DNA from: a virus
Direction: 5' to 3' (one strand)
Length of the DNA: 16,501 nucleotides
UHGV virus genome: UHGV-0096653
The notes under the pieces were generated by a model that was not told where the DNA came from, made no database searches, and saw only the letters and a list, made by a program, of their open reading frames with translations. Below, one piece after another: positions 1-7,200 of this stretch (positions within the stretch are counted from its first letter, which is position 1; each line of letters starts with the position of its first letter). The position numbers and the translations under genes were made by a program.

Positions 1-589
1 CCCACTGGCGCTTTTTAGGGCTGAATACAACCGCATCAGGATGGCGAGTTAAAAAATCCTGTTCATCCGTCTGCGTGTCCGGTTGCGAAGCGTCCGGACG
101 AGAAGGGTTTTTTTCTGACGGATCATGTTTTGATTTTACTGACGGATCCCCGCCAGATTCTGACGGGTCAAAACTGGTTTTTTTGGTGGATTCCGACGCC
201 TCAAATTTTGAGGGGTCAATTTTTGACGCATCAGATTTTGACGGTTCAGATTTTGATGTGTCAGATTTTGACGGGTCAGAATCTGACAGTTGAGAAAATG
301 CCGCTGCCTGAAGCTTCGCAACGTTAAGCTGATAAACATTCGACGCATTGCGGTTACCCTGGCGACGCGCCTTACGCGTTAACCAGCCTTCTGCTTCCAG
401 CCGTGCGATAGCCGTTCTGACGGTACTCATCCCCGCGCCAATCTGACGGGCAATGGTTTCAATTGATGGCCAGCACACACCTTCGTCATTACTGAAATCA
501 GCCAGGCGGGCCATAATTGCCACGCTGGATAATTTCATGCCTGATGCAGCGCAACCATCCCATACATAGCCGGTTAATTTAGTGCTCAT
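1..589 (-). CDS. Phage replication initiator-like protein (lambda O-like role), 3' end beyond window
   Basis: Minus-strand frame open from ATG at 589-587 to the window edge (absent from ORF track because no stop is in the window). Translation starts MSTKLTGYVWDGCAASGMKLSSVAIMARLADFSNDEGVCWPSIETIARQIGAGMSTVRTAIARLEAEGWLTRKAR, a winged-helix DNA-binding N-terminus, followed by pentapeptide repeats (DPSKS-like) encoded by tandem 15-bp DNA repeats. Sits after cro/cII-like genes as lambda O does. Confidence 0.6.
   Translation of the reverse strand, partial: MSTKLTGYVWDGCAASGMKLSSVAIMARLADFSNDEGVCWPSIETIARQIGAGMSTVRTAIARLEAEGWLTRKARRQGNRNASNVYQLNVAKLQAAAFSQLSDSDPSKSDTSKSEPSKSDASKIDPSKFEASESTKKTSFDPSESGGDPSVKSKHDPSEKNPSRPDASQPDTQTDEQDFLTRHPDAVVFSPKKRQW
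201..290. repeat. Six tandem 15-bp direct repeats (consensus TCAGATTTTGACGGG), iteron-like; candidate origin inside the initiator gene
   Basis: Head-to-tail units at 201, 216, 231, 246, 261, 276; degenerate copies also at 128-182. Iterons embedded in the initiator gene is the lambda ori/O arrangement. Confidence 0.6.
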
Positions 590-598
590 GACCGACCT

Positions 599-937
599 CT
601 ATTTCCCTGAATTTACGACGAAACTGTTCGAGCGGACTGAAGCATTCATGTTCATAGCCTTCACGGAGGTAGATAACCCGTTGTGTTTCCGGCTCCCAAC
701 GAATGACTCTGACGGGCACTCCGTAGTGATCTTTGAACCAGCGGTTAACTTGTCGCAAAGGACTGTCTCCTTCTGCCGGTTGAAATCACCCACAGCCCAC
801 TCTGCAAAGCTGTGGGTTACAATTTCCCTGTCACCTGGTACATTCACTGCATAGCAATACTCCACCTTCGCTTTTCCACCCGGTACAGGAAGTGCAATCA
901 GTTGCGAACGACGGTAGTGTGTTGTTAAACTGTTCAT
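599..937 (-). CDS. Hypothetical protein (112 aa), translationally coupled to upstream CII-like gene
   Basis: ORF track; its ATG (937-935) overlaps the TGA (936-934) of the upstream gene as ATGA; same strand as the early operon. No recognisable motif. Confidence 0.4.
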
Positions 938-1524
938 GCGTTAGTTTCTCCACAACCAGAAGCAATCGACGCCACGACGCCCGGAGCTGCACACTCGCGG
1001 GCGTTACTCTTTTCTGGAGCGCAAAAGATTTTGTAGACCAGTGCTGCATGCTCCTGGAGCTTCGAAATTGACAGATACAACTCATCATTAATTGCTGTCT
1101 GCTCGTGTGGCTCCACTACCCCATCTTCGATTGCCGAACGAATCTGCTTTGAGTAACTCCCGATCTGTTCGATGACTTCCAGCAGGCGCTGGTTAATATC
1201 GGCGTTGTCCACATCCTCGACGTCAGGAAGAGACACAAAGACGCCATTTGCAGACTGCGCCACAGCATCAGCAATGAAGTGAGTGCCACCAGCACGCTGT
1301 AAAACCATTGCCCATCCCAGCGGGAAAATCTGATCGCCATCAGCACGAAGGCGGTTAAATAATGCGTTCTCTGTTACATCCAGCCAGTCAGCTGCTTCAG
1401 CGTAACCACCCGGCAACGTTGCGATAGTTTTTCTGACAGCTTTCACGTACCACTCAGGCTGTTTTTCTACTTTCCAGTGATGCTTACCCACGGCTATCTC
1501 CTTAAAACTGTGGTTACTTTCCAT
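934..1524 (-). CDS. CII-like early regulatory protein (possibly CP76/YdaT-type), 196 aa
   Basis: ORF directly downstream of the Cro-like gene in the same operon, the position of lambda cII or Rac ydaT. Family assignment is by position and general resemblance only; the annotated start overlaps the cro-like stop by 11 nt, so the true start may be internal. Confidence 0.4.
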
Positions 1525-1784: not shown

Positions 1785-1875
1785 GTAAAGTTGTTGATAA
1801 CTTCGATTATACAACTACAACAACTTTTATCACAACTTTTAGATGTTGGAAAGCTAAAACATAAAGTTGTAACCT
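1785..1875. promoter_or_regulatory. OR-like operator cluster with divergent promoters (PR-like for cro on minus, PRM-like for cI on plus)
   Basis: Repeated half-site AAGTTGT/ACAACTT at about 1788, 1811, 1820, 1833, 1864, including the imperfect palindrome AAGTTGTTGATAACTT. Minus-strand -10 TATAAT (complement of 1806-1811) with -35 TTGTGA (complement of 1830-1835), 18-bp spacer. Confidence 0.65.
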
Positions 1876-1899
1876 CAATAAAAACGAGGGGGATATGTT

Positions 1900-2586
1900 G
1901 TGAAAACATTGGCAGAAAGACTAAAAAGCGAAAGAGAAAAAGCAGGAATGAGTCAGGCGCAACTAGCTGAAAAAATTGGGCTTTCACAACAATCCGTAGC
2001 GAAAATCGAGAATGGAGAAACTCAACAGCCTCGGAAAATTAAAGAGATTGCTAAAGTGTTAGGGGTTTCTCAAAAGTGGTTGCAATTGGGCATTGAGGAT
2101 AACGCGTCTTTCCCAGACCTTGTTGTAAAGGAGGCTGAAAGTACAGCATTAGATCCTGACATTTTTGCAAACATTCCAGTCCTAGATGTCGAGTTATCAG
2201 CGGGTAATGGATGTTTGGCTGAAATAGTTGAATCAACTGTAGACTGGTTCCCGCTAAGAAGGATTGATTTAAGAAAAGCTGGTGTATGTGTCTCCAATGC
2301 AAAGATCGTAAAAATTTGGGGCAATAGTTTACTACCTGTACTTAACAATGGAGATTTTGTTGCTGTTGATGTTTCCCAAACGGTTCCTATTCGTGATGGG
2401 GATCTTTATGCCATACGTGATGGCGTATTACTTAGAGTTAAAATATTGATCAATTTACCTGACGGTGGTCTGATTCTAAGAAGTTTCAATAAAGATGAGT
2501 ATCCAGATGAAATTCTCACCTTCGAAGATAGGCGTTCCAGAATTCACGTTATAGGTAGAGTATTCTGGTCATCGCGCACTTGGTAA
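1900..2586 (+). CDS. CI-like phage repressor, N-terminal HTH plus C-terminal S24 (LexA-like) autopeptidase domain
   Basis: 228 aa; HTH MSQAQLAEKIGLSQQSVAKIENG; Ala-Gly cleavage site in ELSAGNG; Ser-Lys dyad context (WGNSLLP ... LLRVKIL); GTG start at 1900 preceded by GAGGGGG. Confidence 0.85.
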   Translation: MKTLAERLKSEREKAGMSQAQLAEKIGLSQQSVAKIENGETQQPRKIKEIAKVLGVSQKWLQLGIEDNASFPDLVVKEAESTALDPDIFANIPVLDVELSAGNGCLAEIVESTVDWFPLRRIDLRKAGVCVSNAKIVKIWGNSLLPVLNNGDFVAVDVSQTVPIRDGDLYAIRDGVLLRVKILINLPDGGLILRSFNKDEYPDEILTFEDRRSRIHVIGRVFWSSRTW

Positions 2587-2613
2587 TGCATCAAAAAACC
2601 TTCCTTCAGAAAT

Positions 2614-2718
2614 TTAGTTACCATTATTACCCGCCTTTTCAATCTTCCTCCCGTGATTTGAGAGTTTCCAATCACGGAAGGAAAGTGTCCCTTGTGTAAT
2701 TAAAAGCGCATCGTCCAT
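2614..2718 (-). CDS. Small hypothetical ORF (34 aa, MDDALLITQGTLSFRDWKLSNHGRKIEKAGNNGN)
   Basis: Strong SD AAGGAGG 5 nt upstream of ATG (minus strand); no recognisable domain; convergent with cI. Confidence 0.3.
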   Translation of the reverse strand: MDDALLITQGTLSFRDWKLSNHGRKIEKAGNNGN

Positions 2719-2772
2719 ACAACCTCCTTTTTTGATAACCCTTGCCCTCATTTCACATCCGTCAAAACCACA

Positions 2773-2830
2773 TAAAGTTGTTGACAACAACCAAAACAAC
2801 AACTAGATTACAACTTAAAGATGTTGCAGT
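2773..2830 (+). promoter_or_regulatory. PL-like promoter with second operator cluster
   Basis: -35 TTGACA (2781-2786), 17-bp spacer, -10 TAGATT (2804-2809). Carries near-copies of OR motifs: TAAAGTTGTTGACAAC (vs TAAAGTTGTTGATAAC at 1794) and ACAACTTAAAGATGTTG (vs ACAACTTTTAGATGTTG at 1843). Confidence 0.6.
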
Positions 2831-2924
2831 AACGAACAGGCAGGACGCCCACGAAGTAGCCGCCGGTGGCGTATGAATGACCGGATGATTCGTTAGCAAC
2901 AAAAAAGCGCCCTACAGGACGCTT

Positions 2925-2937
2925 TGCTCTTTAAAAA
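2925..2937 (+). promoter_or_regulatory. boxA-like element (TGCTCTTTAAAAA), possible nut-type antitermination site
   Basis: Close match to rrn/lambdoid boxA (TGCTCTTTAACAA / CGCTCTTA); lies about 120 nt downstream of the PL-like promoter on the same strand. Confidence 0.4.
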
Positions 2938-3090
2938 TCAGTAACCCTCACTTTGGGCCTGGACCTGGTGGCCTGGGACGAGGAGGAATATGAAAAGGCT
3001 CTATTGGTCGGCTCATTATCCAATCCTATTATGTCTCATTTCTTCGGTTTCGGTGGTTTCGGCTTCGGAGGTACATGTCCGTGAACTGGA

Positions 3091-3585
3091 TTATGCTTGT
3101 TGCTCATCATTAATATCCGTTAGTTCATTCTCTAGAGGTAGATCTCCCGCACACCAAGCTATAAATTTTTCTTTGGTTGTTAAATCGTACTTAGTTGGAA
3201 CACCAGCAAAAATACAGGCCCGAATGAAAGCCGCTCGTTCAAGTGATTTCCATGGATTACTATCAGTATCTTGGATTTTTAAATACCTAGCTTGCAACTG
3301 ATCTTCAGAAAGAGTATCAGACTCAATCAGCAGTCTTTTGTAATGTCTCGCTTGTTCTTTAGACATCCCAGCCTCCTGGCCGAACTGATAGACCAACTGA
3401 AGAACCGAAAGTACGGCAACAAACAAACCAAAAATAAATAAATTACTGTACGGGGCGAAAACTGAAAAACCGAGAACGATTAACATCAACGTTATTAATT
3501 TATCAATGCGAGTTAACAACGTGTAATTCATCTTCTCCAATACATAAGAGTAGTGAATATAAAATTTATAATCGTCTCTGGTCAT
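3091..3585 (-). CDS. Two-TM inner-membrane protein, candidate superinfection-exclusion (SieB-like) protein
   Basis: 164-aa ORF (probable start at internal ATG 3531 with GGAG RBS, giving MNYTLLTRIDKL...). Two hydrophobic helices (LITLMLIVLGFSVFAPY, LFIFGLFVAVLSVLQLVY) then a charged C-terminal domain. AT-rich relative to flanks; immediately beside the immunity region. Confidence 0.55.
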   Translation of the reverse strand: MTRDDYKFYIHYSYVLEKMNYTLLTRIDKLITLMLIVLGFSVFAPYSNLFIFGLFVAVLSVLQLVYQFGQEAGMSKEQARHYKRLLIESDTLSEDQLQARYLKIQDTDSNPWKSLERAAFIRACIFAGVPTKYDLTTKEKFIAWCAGDLPLENELTDINDEQQA

Positions 3586-3967
3586 ATTAGTCTCAGTTTT
3601 CCTTGGGTGGTTTTGGAGGAACTGGAGGCTTTTGTCTTAACGGCACATGCCTCTCCTCATACTTATCTACACATAGATCCATATAAATCCTTATCGTTGT
3701 TGGGGAGGGTTACATAATAACCAAATCCTTGTTGTTGGGGAATAACCAGGTCCACCTCGCCTGATGTGGCTAAAAGCAGGCACATAACAGCTAAGTATTT
3801 TCAACCAGAGAGAATCCTTAGCGTTGTGGTGAATGCGGCTCAGCGCACGCGGGTTAAGGTTGAGGCTGACAGTCGACCTTCTGTGGATACCCACCCGTCT
3901 GGTGTGCAACCTTCGCCAGGCACCGGGAGGCACCCGGCACCACAACTTTATGCTGTGTGTAGTCCTG

Positions 3968-4013
3968 GCGGTACCAGTTTGTACACTTGCTTCCGGCTGG
4001 TACCGCTCTTTTT
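3968..4013 (+). terminator. Rho-independent terminator
   Basis: Perfect 10-bp inverted repeat GCGGTACCAG ... CTGGTACCGC followed by TCTTTTT. Confidence 0.6.
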
Positions 4014-4150
4014 ACAAAACAGAGAAGAGCATCACCGGACGACGGGCTCATAACCCAATCCATCCGGGCGGCTGCCACCGCAGGTGTTCTTCTCTGTTTT
4101 GTGGAGAAACCAACCGACCTTGCAGGGTCGATATGATGAGGAGCAGCAAA

Positions 4151-4513
4151 ATGGCTAGCGAACGCAGTACTGATGTGCAGGCATTTATCGGGGAGCTGGA
4201 CGGCGGCGTATTTGAAACCAAAATCGGCGCAGTTCTCAGTGAAGTCGCTTCCGGTGTGATGAACACGAAAACCAAAGGTAAGGTCTCACTCAACCTGGAA
4301 ATCGAACCATTTGATGAGAACCGTGTGAAAATCAAACACAAACTCTCATATGTTCGCCCGACTAACCGCGGGAAAATTTCCGAAGAAGACACCACCGAAA
4401 CGCCGATGTATGTCAATCGCGGTGGTCGCCTGACTATTCTGCAGGAAGACCAGGGACAATTACTGACTCTTGCCGGTGAACCTGACGGAAAACTCCGCGC
4501 AGCAGGTCATTAA
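4151..4513 (+). CDS. yfdP: YfdP-like hypothetical protein (120 aa)
   Basis: GAGGAG RBS 7 nt before ATG 4151; first gene of an operon whose gene order and product lengths (120/274/178/120) match the E. coli K-12 CPS-53 yfdPQRST cluster as recalled from memory. Confidence 0.5.
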   Translation: MASERSTDVQAFIGELDGGVFETKIGAVLSEVASGVMNTKTKGKVSLNLEIEPFDENRVKIKHKLSYVRPTNRGKISEEDTTETPMYVNRGGRLTILQEDQGQLLTLAGEPDGKLRAAGH

Positions 4514-4578: not shown

Positions 4579-5403
4579 ATGTCTCAGAACTTAGACGCAA
4601 CCGCAATTAATCAAATCCATGCCCTTATTTCTGCTCAGGGTGTTAATGAAATTATCAGTAAGATTGGTGCCGATGCTGTGGCATTGCCTGAGAATTTCCG
4701 CATTCATGATCTGGAAAAATTTAATTTAAATCGCTTCCGTTTCCGTGGTGCGCTTTCCACTGCCAGCATCGATGACTTTACCCGTTATTCTAAAGATCTT
4801 GCAGATGAAGGCACCCGCTGCTTTATCGATGCTGATAATATGCGTGCCGTCAGTGTACTTAACCTGGGTACTATTGATGAACCAGGTCACGCAGATAACA
4901 CCGCCACTCTCAAACTGAAAAAGACAGCACCGTTCTCTGCCCTGCTGTCTGTTAACGACGAGCGTAACTCCCAGAAGTCACTGGCAGAATGGATTGAAGA
5001 CTGGGCCGACTACCTTGTGGGCTTTGATGCTAATGGTGACGCTATTCAGGCAACAAAAGCGGCTGCGGCAGTCCGTAAAATCACGATTGAAGCAAACCAG
5101 ACCGCTGGTTTTGAAGATAATGACTTCAGCGGCAAACGCTCCCTGATGGAATCTGTCGAAGCGAAGACCAAAGACATTATGCCAGTGGCATTTGAATTTA
5201 AATGCGTTCCGTTTGAAGGTCTGAAAGAACGTCCGTTTAAATTACGCCTCAGCATTATCACTGGCGATCGTCCTGTACTGGTTCTGCGCATTATTCAGCT
5301 GGAAGCGGTGCAGGAAGATATGGCTAACGAATTTCGTGATCTGCTTGTTGAGAAATTCAAAGACAGCAAAGTAGAAACCTTTATTGGTACTTTCACCGCC
5401 TGA
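4579..5403 (+). CDS. yfdQ: YfdQ-like protein (DUF2303-type), 274 aa
   Basis: RBS GTGAGGA; length and operon position match yfdQ as recalled. Confidence 0.55.
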
Positions 5404-7038: not shown

Positions 7039-7073
7039 GGACCCAGCAAATATACACAACCTATAAAACACTA

Positions 7074-7098
7074 AAGCGCCTCAGGGGCGCTTTTTGTT
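7074..7098 (+). terminator. Rho-independent terminator
   Basis: AGCGCC-TCAG-GGGCGCT stem-loop followed by TTTTT. Confidence 0.7.
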
Positions 7099-7200
7099 TG
7101 CACAAAAGTGCACAAATTTGCACAATTTTTTTGAACGACTTTTTACCCTTCCGGCCCGCATGGCGGCTGGATCCGTCAAGGATCCGTGCGTGCACAAAAA
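7099..7200. repeat. Phased TGCACAA repeats and GGATCCGT direct repeat; candidate protein-binding array (packaging or regulatory site)
   Basis: TGCACAAAAG / TGCACAAATT / TGCACAATTT at exact 10-bp period (7099-7128); a fourth TGCACAA at 7191; GGATCCGTCAAGGATCCGTG at 7168-7187. Confidence 0.5.

Follow-up and report, generated by a model that had tools for sequence, protein, structure and literature searches.

How does a lambdoid prophage that carries no recognisable N gene get its early-left operon transcribed? The question is raised by bases 1785-2940 of the UHGV virus genome UHGV-0096653, a stretch of 16,501 nucleotides (nt) that is referred to throughout, at its full length, as the window; these bases make up the immunity region of an SfV/e14-type lambdoid prophage, whose early region occupies bases 1 to ~7040. 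A previous reading, made from the letters alone (the sequence-only reading), had picked out duplicated operators, a rightward early promoter and a boxA-like site, and had left three options for antitermination, namely that it is supplied in trans, is based on RNA or is absent; the evidence set out below favours the RNA-based option. What that reading overlooked is the main feature of the locus, a conserved structured RNA at 2830-2895, between the early-left promoter (PL) and the boxA, which together with the boxA may form an antitermination leader that works without N.

The operators, cI and post-leader DNA of phage SfV are unrelated in alignment to those of the window, yet SfV has, immediately behind its PL, a 64-nt piece that shares 87.5% identity with window positions 2831-2894. 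A covariance model of this RNA, R1, matches 2827-2896 (91 bits, E 4.5e-31), the sole copy in the window, and describes a three-way junction of helices P1, P2 and P3 with two joiners (Table 1). In an alignment of 46 non-redundant sequences 93.3% of the helix cells pair, against 70% when shuffled and 22-41% when the partners are slid, with 153 cells changed on both sides and compensatory change in 11 of the 14 pairs; RNAalifold, unaided, predicts the same three helices. Among 94 hits from contigs representing one genome per species (88 distinct sequences counted) 96.7% are paired, and the six column pairs with the highest mutual information are helix pairs; mutual information picks out essentially helix pairs only, with no covariation pointing to tertiary or pseudoknot contacts. 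P2 is invariant, so that covariation speaks neither for nor against it, and it likewise gives no verdict on a conceivable alternative pairing of GGC (2868-2870) with GCC (2847-2849), as both are invariant. Furthermore some 37 unpaired bases are near-invariant across Enterobacterales, an Aeromonas phage and Pseudomonas contigs, and the variants of the P2 loop (AGGAC, AGGAU, AGGAA, AUGGA and AAGGAAA) all keep GGA. Judged by this comparison, the leader is a real conserved structured RNA.

Rfam 15 gave no match at gathering thresholds anywhere in the window, and a permissive scan of 2600-4200 had nothing on the + strand with E up to 10 across 2827-2896, returning nothing besides an STnc100-like RNA further downstream (3793-4015) and chance-level matches. 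A literature text search for the conserved strings of the RNA found nothing, though it may have been described before, and this would therefore seem to be a widely conserved RNA for which there is no Rfam family and for which no account has been found. Two known kinds of RNA were considered and rejected. A self-cleaving, hammerhead-like ribozyme does not fit the junction strands, which are of 2, 13 and 4 nt and are not CUGANGA, GAAA and NUH, and the Rfam ribozyme models do not match the leader RNA; a riboswitch would require an expression platform and none is consistent, the ribosome-binding site lying within 25 nt of the RNA in e14 and 1.3 kb without a credible gene following it in the window.

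The leader RNA is found in more than 200 phage and prophage loci overall. By BLAST it is present, almost always unannotated, in 53 phage records, the hosts of which are Escherichia, Salmonella, Shigella, Yersinia, Pectobacterium, Pantoea, Klebsiella, Citrobacter, Providencia and Aeromonas. A pattern scan picked out at least 120 viral contigs and, among contigs representing one genome per species, at least 120 stretches; 94 of the first 100 genome loci are true model matches, drawn from across Enterobacterales plus a small number of Pseudomonas contigs. BLAST detects one or more copies in 1838 of 5426 complete E. coli genomes, with no annotation among the matches listed. The e14 prophage of E. 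coli K-12 holds a full copy (72 bits, NC_000913.3 1202110-1202180, minus strand) between ymfK, which is the e14 repressor gene, and ymfJ, where the K-12 record has no annotated feature. The Rac prophage of K-12 has a decayed partial copy downstream of racR (AAGUAGCC ... GGCGUAUGAA; L253 5517-5553, minus strand), which sits after a good TTGACA-17-TATAGT promoter; the annotated small RNA (sRNA) KilS lies ~1 kb further and is unrelated.

Where the promoter match is good, a -10 hexamer ends in most loci 13-25 nt ahead of the RNA (P1), and in the window the RNA starts ~15 nt after the predicted PL start. In SfV, ST64B, ZF40, YeP1, pAEv1818, SfIV and K-12 e14 the repressor gene has the RNA close behind it, on its own strand, and in every annotated temperate phage opened it stands in the nutL or putL position. 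Virulent phages of the T5-like and KP34-like types also carry it, in early regions that are transcribed by the host polymerase. For example, it is present in the virulent Drulisvirus Minorna; the T5-like Providencia phage PSTCR5 has a T5-type promoter-like sequence just upstream of the RNA, and PR1, which is related to PSTCR5, has two copies, both in an annotated repeat region. In 163 contexts no sense-strand terminator was called within 150 nt after the RNA, so that it is a leader and not an sRNA gene of its own, and in SfV and e14 no more than about 25-50 nt separate it from a ribosome-binding site and gene. A second copy, comparable to putR, was looked for in the window, in 11 kb of SfV and within 8 kb at 100 genome loci, and there is none. 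In 52 of 194 related contexts (e.g. L006 = mEp237, L009 and L039) another conserved module, GCGCAGNAGGU ... AACGUUCCGCCAGCCUGGCG, follows the RNA; this module is a small pentaloop hairpin and may be another accessory signal.

The promoter from which the leader of the window would be transcribed is part of a lambdoid switch. Motif search and repeat analysis agree with the sequence-only reading that a 16-mer and a 17-mer operator motif flank the repressor gene on both sides. The 16-mer, TAAAGTTGTTGAYAAC, has exactly two copies in the window (1786-1801 and 2773-2788) and no further copy in it even with 3 mismatches (0.23 expected), the 17-mer, ACAACTTWWAGATGTTG, lies at 1832-1848 and 2810-2826 (0.13 expected), and six of the seven AAGTTGT heptamers of the window fall within 1788-1870 and 2775-2816. 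Related operators are therefore found on both sides of a CI-type repressor gene, where they overlap core elements of PL and of the leftward early promoter (PR), and the repressor, which has a helix-turn-helix and an S24 autocleavage domain, is encoded divergently from a cro-like gene. The consensus -35 that had been noted for the right-hand promoter is present as TTGACA at 2781. Promoter-like sites across the whole 2.9-kb region are no commoner than in shuffles, and the weight of PR and PL thus comes from their position inside the operator clusters. We would anticipate that transcription from PL starts at about 2816-2817 and that the CI-type repressor binds both operator clusters, shutting off leftward PR and rightward PL; the earlier proposal of repressor control over divergent early promoters holds as far as anatomy goes, with the CI-type gene lying between clusters that overlap the cores of both. 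The arrangement of right and left operators (OR and OL) is ordinary for lambdoid phages, and the operator and promoter layout is standard.

Beyond the leader RNA, the boxA-like element that had been placed ~120 nt downstream of PL is indeed there, as TGCTCTTTAA at 2925-2934. It is identical over 10 nt to the boxA of the E. coli K-12 rrnB leader, the letters that come next being AAAAT in the window and CAATT in rrnB; it matches GCUCUUUAACAA, and relatives carry GCTCTTTAACAAT. As in rrnB, a hairpin precedes it: the one at 2904-2925 is separated by 2 nt from GCUCUUUAA (or directly adjoins UGCUCUUUAA), the sequence being GCCGCUGAGAAAAAGCGAAGCGGC-AC-UGCUCUUUAACAAUUUAUCAG in the K-12 rrnB leader, AAAAAAGCGCCCUACAGGACGC-UU-UGCUCUUUAAAAAUCAG in the window and ...GGACGC-UU-AGCUCUUUAACAAUCUGG in SfIV and many related contigs. 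A search for a boxB-like hairpin, as had been suggested, therefore finds a hairpin, but one that is 5' of boxA in rrn order and not 3' of it in the order of a lambda nut site. On the - strand the hairpin (-12.0 kcal/mol, then U6) is a clean intrinsic terminator for a convergent gene, whereas on the + strand it is weaker (-7.7 kcal/mol) and has a C.A mismatch that is present in every boxA-class hairpin variant inspected; with this asymmetry it can stop transcription of the convergent gene and yet be a poor terminator for PL.

The hairpin and boxA module is conserved in SfIV and in further loci, and of 194 distinct contexts 29 have a boxA no more than 90 nt behind the RNA; these represent several unrelated sequence backgrounds (PSTCR5, 10 nt after P1; L231, 3 nt after P1; L153; L156; and the SfIV-type module), the RNA being followed by hairpin and boxA in some backgrounds and by boxA alone in others. 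Over a range of 400 nt, 20 of 103 contexts show a boxA on the sense strand and 3 on the opposite one. Such recurrence in unrelated backgrounds argues that the boxA is not a lone chance match, and it is probably real. Some boxA contexts have a + strand gene with a ribosome-binding site next, so that the hairpin is not merely the terminator of a neighbour. Across contexts there is no clear difference that would link boxA to longer + strand stretches free of open reading frames (ORFs).

No arginine-rich, N-like ORF follows PL on the + strand between 2800 and 4160, in keeping with the sequence-only reading, and the downstream ORFs, which were examined within the window only, have no match to antiterminator families in PHROGs or Pfam. 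That reading also had the first downstream sequence as antisense to a membrane-protein gene, and the first gene, at 3091-3585, is on the - strand; it stands in place of SfV orf33 and is convergent, and a transcript from PL would thus be antisense to it. For 1.33 kb after PL (2816-4151) none of the + strand ORFs matches a family or resembles N. The ORF 2990-3301 (+) was rejected as a gene, as it has no PHROG match, scores 24.9 for HapK against a 25-bit Pfam cut-off and overlaps the well-supported - strand gene. Downstream of PL but still ahead of the first early-left gene comes the STnc100-like stretch, which has a strong terminator at its end; SfV carries this stretch at ~97% identity, and SfIV has it too. 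With 1.33 kb that holds no credible + strand gene and then this terminator (3968-4013) before the first early-left gene at 4151, a PL transcript needs read-through. Long untranslated RNA is, moreover, a natural substrate for Rho.

We would propose that the PL transcript starts near 2816 and that its first ~120 nt form a protein-free antitermination leader in two parts. The three-way-junction RNA (2830-2895) would fold on leaving RNA polymerase and stay bound to the elongation complex in cis, as the put RNA of HK022 does, whilst the rrn-style hairpin and boxA (2904-2937) would recruit host NusB and NusE with NusA, NusG and SuhB. The two parts would jointly protect the polymerase against Rho as well as intrinsic terminators, and it could then cross the 1.33 kb antisense to the inserted gene, pass 3968-4013 and reach the early-left genes from 4151; an N gene would be absent since none is needed. 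To the suggestion that the leader is such an N-independent device, based on RNA and Nus factors, we would give an even chance. Should it function in this way, the new element would be a protein-free antitermination leader of a known general type.

The put RNA acts on the beta' zinc-binding domain of RNA polymerase, where it suppresses pausing and termination, and is a structural model for how a nascent RNA reprograms the enzyme. In HK022, putL starts at +3 of the PL transcript, and put RNA acts in cis on the elongation complex (PMC9378689). Like HK022 put and HK639 putL, the RNA of the window is a structured RNA of ~65-75 nt just downstream of PL in a lambdoid prophage without N; its family resembles HK639 in having a single copy, in the left operon only, and by analogy with put a phage protein would not be needed. 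It is unlike put in being a three-way junction closed by P1, where put is two adjacent stem-loops, and in that some members of its family then carry boxA. Membership of the put family was rejected by reciprocal covariance-model searches, with no match in either direction. A model built from 7 put sequences (R2) gives 96, 94 and 51 bits on HK022 putL, HK639 putL and HK022 putR and detects none of the PL leaders in the window, SfV, ST64B, SfIV and e14, and R1 does not match the put sequences of HK022 or HK639. In comparison with the conserved put strings GAACGGC, GUCGG, GGCGGG and CAAU, the strings that are shared (CGAAC-GGC and GGAUGA) are superficial, the GG of GGAUGA belonging here to the covarying P3 stem, and the sets of phages found by BLAST, 24 records for put and 53 for the RNA of the window, do not overlap.

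The second part of the leader resembles the rrn leader, which needs no phage protein, in its order of hairpin, 2 nt and boxA (GGACGC-UU-UGCUCUUUAA in the window, AGCGGC-AC-UGCUCUUUAACAAU in rrnB) and, as in rrnB, in an A-rich stretch ending in AAAAAGCG; SfIV-type relatives share GCUCUUUAACAAU with rrnB at 13 of 13 nt. It differs from rrn in that its boxA ends AAAAAU where that of rrnB ends ACAAUU, in that the hairpin doubles as the terminator of a convergent gene, and in its setting, a phage early promoter with an extra conserved RNA ahead. There is also no clear boxC, as a GU-rich boxC is not evident in the window and the AAUCUGG of its relatives resembles the start of rrnB ACAAUCUGUGUGGG weakly. 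With lambda nutL, the boxA of which is CGCUCUUAAAAAU, the leader shares a position between PL and the early-left genes and the presence of a boxA, whereas the window has no N gene and no boxB with a GNRA-like pentaloop 3' of boxA; of 164 related contexts, 2 have a lambda-type boxA-boxB nut site, and the window has none. We know of no case in which boxA/Nus complexes alone suppress intrinsic terminators efficiently. They do, alone, protect long non-coding transcripts from Rho (PMC7665894), and as in boxA-protected CRISPR arrays and the suhB leader the boxA stands here at the start of a long gene-free stretch, of 1.33 kb, although unlike these the transcript of the window is a phage early operon and must also pass an intrinsic terminator.

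Several points weigh against the proposed antitermination leader. Anatomy is what has been shown of the leader; its function is an inference. The window sequence alone folds into the three-way junction no better than shuffles do (z = -0.61), so that support for the structure comes from comparison and not from energy, and with no put model match and another topology the analogy to put is one of position and context only. There is one copy of the RNA per locus and no PR-side copy like putR. The RNA and boxA are separable, as 85% of the family members have no boxA nearby, and the boxA of the window overlaps the U-rich tail of a hairpin that doubles as a - strand terminator. A sense-strand intrinsic terminator was called within 1.5 kb in only 26% of contexts (42 of 163), a count which, beside 77 of 163 for the antisense strand and without a proper control, is uninformative. 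Finally three related loci carry the RNA together with an arginine-rich, N-like protein, two of them (L230 and L067) with a classical lambda-type nutL (boxA and a GCGCUGAAAAAGCGC boxB) and the third (L231) with a boxA and then a different hairpin, and the RNA is thus no strict substitute for N. In L067 there is, in addition, a gene for a Nun-like protein with the ending VVNHAHQRNPKKKW.

The occurrence of the RNA together with N and nutL in rare loci would suit an account in which the hairpin-boxA and host Nus factors do all of the anti-Rho work and the RNA has another job at the 5' end of early transcripts, possibilities being the stabilisation of messenger RNA, a decoy for a conserved host protein such as CsrA, for which the GGA in every P2 loop variant would speak, or an anti-defence RNA. 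Elsewhere boxA alone suffices (PMC7665894), and in the majority of loci with the RNA no terminator was called downstream on the sense strand. We nevertheless consider this account unlikely, as the 85% of the family without boxA are almost all without N too, as the ~37 near-invariant unpaired bases are far more constraint than a stabilising 5' hairpin needs, and as strict placement after promoters of the host polymerase fits co-transcriptional action. It would seem less credible still that PL yields only a short RNA of ~115-120 nt, trans-acting or attenuated, with the genes from 4151 on another promoter and no antitermination. The structured domain, A-rich linker, hairpin and U-rich tail (2904-2937) do resemble the architecture of an sRNA, the + strand hairpin of -7.7 kcal/mol being followed by UUUGCUCUUU, and the downstream STnc100-like RNA may have its own promoter; but the tail is a boxA and not a plain U-run, and the C.A mismatch weakens the + strand hairpin relative to the - strand (-12.0 kcal/mol). 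Most relatives, moreover, have no hairpin after the RNA, with the nearby ribosome-binding sites and genes of SfV and e14 and the 163 contexts in which no terminator was called close behind it telling the same way.

Since lambda, P22 and phage 21 each pair a protein with an RNA site just after PL, the RNA might also be a nut-like site for a phage antiterminator protein that is encoded outside the window, or is too diverged to recognise, and acts in trans. Part of the lambdoid genome is not visible, because the O-like gene is cut by the left edge of the window and a P2-like prophage adjoins on the right, at ~7040-7099. However, the genes after the RNA vary by locus; lambdoid, T5-like and KP34-like phages share the RNA but no obvious regulator; ORFs with an arginine-rich N-terminus are no commoner downstream than on the control strand; and where a classical nutL and an N-like gene occur together, in two loci, nutL forms a boxA-boxB site of its own, further downstream than the RNA. 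A protein partner is on these grounds very improbable.

A more far-reaching interpretation stands at somewhat under an even chance: the RNA may form a second class of processive antiterminator RNA that binds polymerase and is unrelated in structure to the first, or else be a host-takeover RNA, at the early promoters of temperate lambdoid and virulent T5-like and KP34-like phages, sometimes with an rrn-type boxA, and unannotated in about one third of complete E. coli genomes including K-12 e14. A hint comes from e14 itself, nearly the whole of which is induced by DNA damage, including leftward ymfJ, ymfH, xisE and intE, a response that the other cryptic prophages of K-12 do not show (PMC11228462); this pattern fits processive transcription from e14 promoters without proving it.

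Table 1. Features of the lambdoid part of the window, in order of position
Feature	Position	Strand	Details
O-like replication gene with internal iterons	2-589	-	expected lambdoid origin
phrog_1170 gene	599-937	-	
CII-like gene	934-1524	-	Phage_CP76 / phrog_101; overlaps end of cro-like gene
cro-like gene, YdaS-type helix-turn-helix	1514-1762	-	Pfam YdaS_toxin 3.6e-14, PHROG 35; first in leftward PR operon
OR-like operator cluster	1786-1872		16-mer 1786-1801, 17-mer 1832-1848, AAGTTGT/ACAACTT half-sites 1820-1826 and 1864-1870
PR-like promoter, TTGTGA-18-TATAAT	1835-1806	-	10/12 match; within OR cluster, faces cro-like gene
CI-type repressor gene, 228 amino acids	1900-2586	+	HTH_3 1.2e-15 and Peptidase_S24 9.5e-14 (Pfam); phrog_4 1.1e-53
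OL-like operator cluster	2773-2826		16-mer 2773-2788 over -35 hexamer; 17-mer 2810-2826 over predicted start
PL-like promoter, TTGACA-17-TAGATT	2781-2809	+	10/12 match; within right-hand operator cluster
Conserved three-way-junction leader RNA, 65 nt	2830-2895	+	model R1, covariation
Helix P1	2830-2836 with 2889-2895	+	
Helix P2, GGC/GCC	2839-2841 with 2847-2849	+	loop AGGAC, GGA-containing
Joiner J2/3, 13 nt	2850-2862	+	invariant; CACGAAGUAGCCG (also written CACGAAGUAGCC)
Helix P3	2863-2867 with 2880-2884	+	loop GGCGUAUGAAUG; conserved form GGCRUAYGAA
Joiner J3/1	2885-2888	+	AUGA
Asymmetric hairpin	2904-2925	both strands	directly 5' of boxA, A-tract before it
boxA, TGCTCTTTAAAAA	2925-2937	+	first 10 nt = rrnB boxA
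Inserted convergent gene, 164 amino acids	3091-3585	-	phrog_6315, E 8.6e-64; N-terminal half hydrophobic by inspection
STnc100-like RNA	3793-4015	+	Rfam RF02076, 44.6 bits vs gathering score 47, E 5.5e-8
Strong intrinsic terminator	3968-4013	+	12-13 bp stem, then UCUUUUU; end of STnc100-like RNA
First early-left (PL operon) gene	4151-4513	+	SfV orf32 homologue, phrog_204
DUF2303 gene	4579-5403	+	next after 4151-4513

Some further features of the window touch the leader less directly. A 15-bp iteron, TCAGATTTTGACGGG, is present in five copies at 201-280, within the O-like replication initiator gene. A 17-nt inverted repeat (2645-2683, 88% complementary, 5-nt loop) is situated after the cI stop codon and before OL; having no U-tract on either strand, it is not an obvious terminator, so that transcripts from the repressor-maintenance promoter (PRM) might enter the PL leader in lysogens. 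The inserted gene at 3091-3585 is flanked by small - strand ORFs (3593-3682, 3036-3110 and 2948-3016), each with a proline-rich end (..KPPVPPKPPKEN, ..VPPKPKPPKPKK, ..PPRPRPPGPGPK); these tails match GGN-rich + strand repeats (TRF: 15-nt repeat, 3043-3072), and they may be real peptides or a by-product of the repeat. At 4016-4100 (+), just upstream of ORF 4151, there is a long inverted repeat, ACAAAACAGAGAAGA ... TCTTCTCTGTTTTGT around ~50 nt, that is conserved in SfV and SfIV.

From 7099 onward, which is the right 57% of the window, the DNA is 98.9% identical to P2-like phages (P88 and vB_EcoM-705R2: portal, terminase, scaffold and capsid). No phage record spans both the lambdoid left part and the P2-like right part, and the window therefore crosses a junction (7040-7099) of two prophage sequences, adjacent or nested. 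The lambdoid xis and int genes, which would be expected after the early-left genes, are absent from the window, and the lambdoid prophage may be truncated.

To our knowledge RNA-only processive antitermination in phages is known from one small family, that of HK022 put. If the antitermination leader proposed here is true, a second, unrelated and far commoner RNA in the genomic position of put would show the strategy to be general, and it would offer a compact genetic part for terminator-proof transcription; the full copy in e14 makes the idea directly testable in standard K-12 strains. It would also explain early-left expression in lambdoid prophages that have no N, including e14, SfV, SfII, SfIV and ST64B, and the hairpin-boxA in rrn style behind a phage PL points to phages making use of the ribosomal RNA antitermination machinery of their hosts without an N protein.

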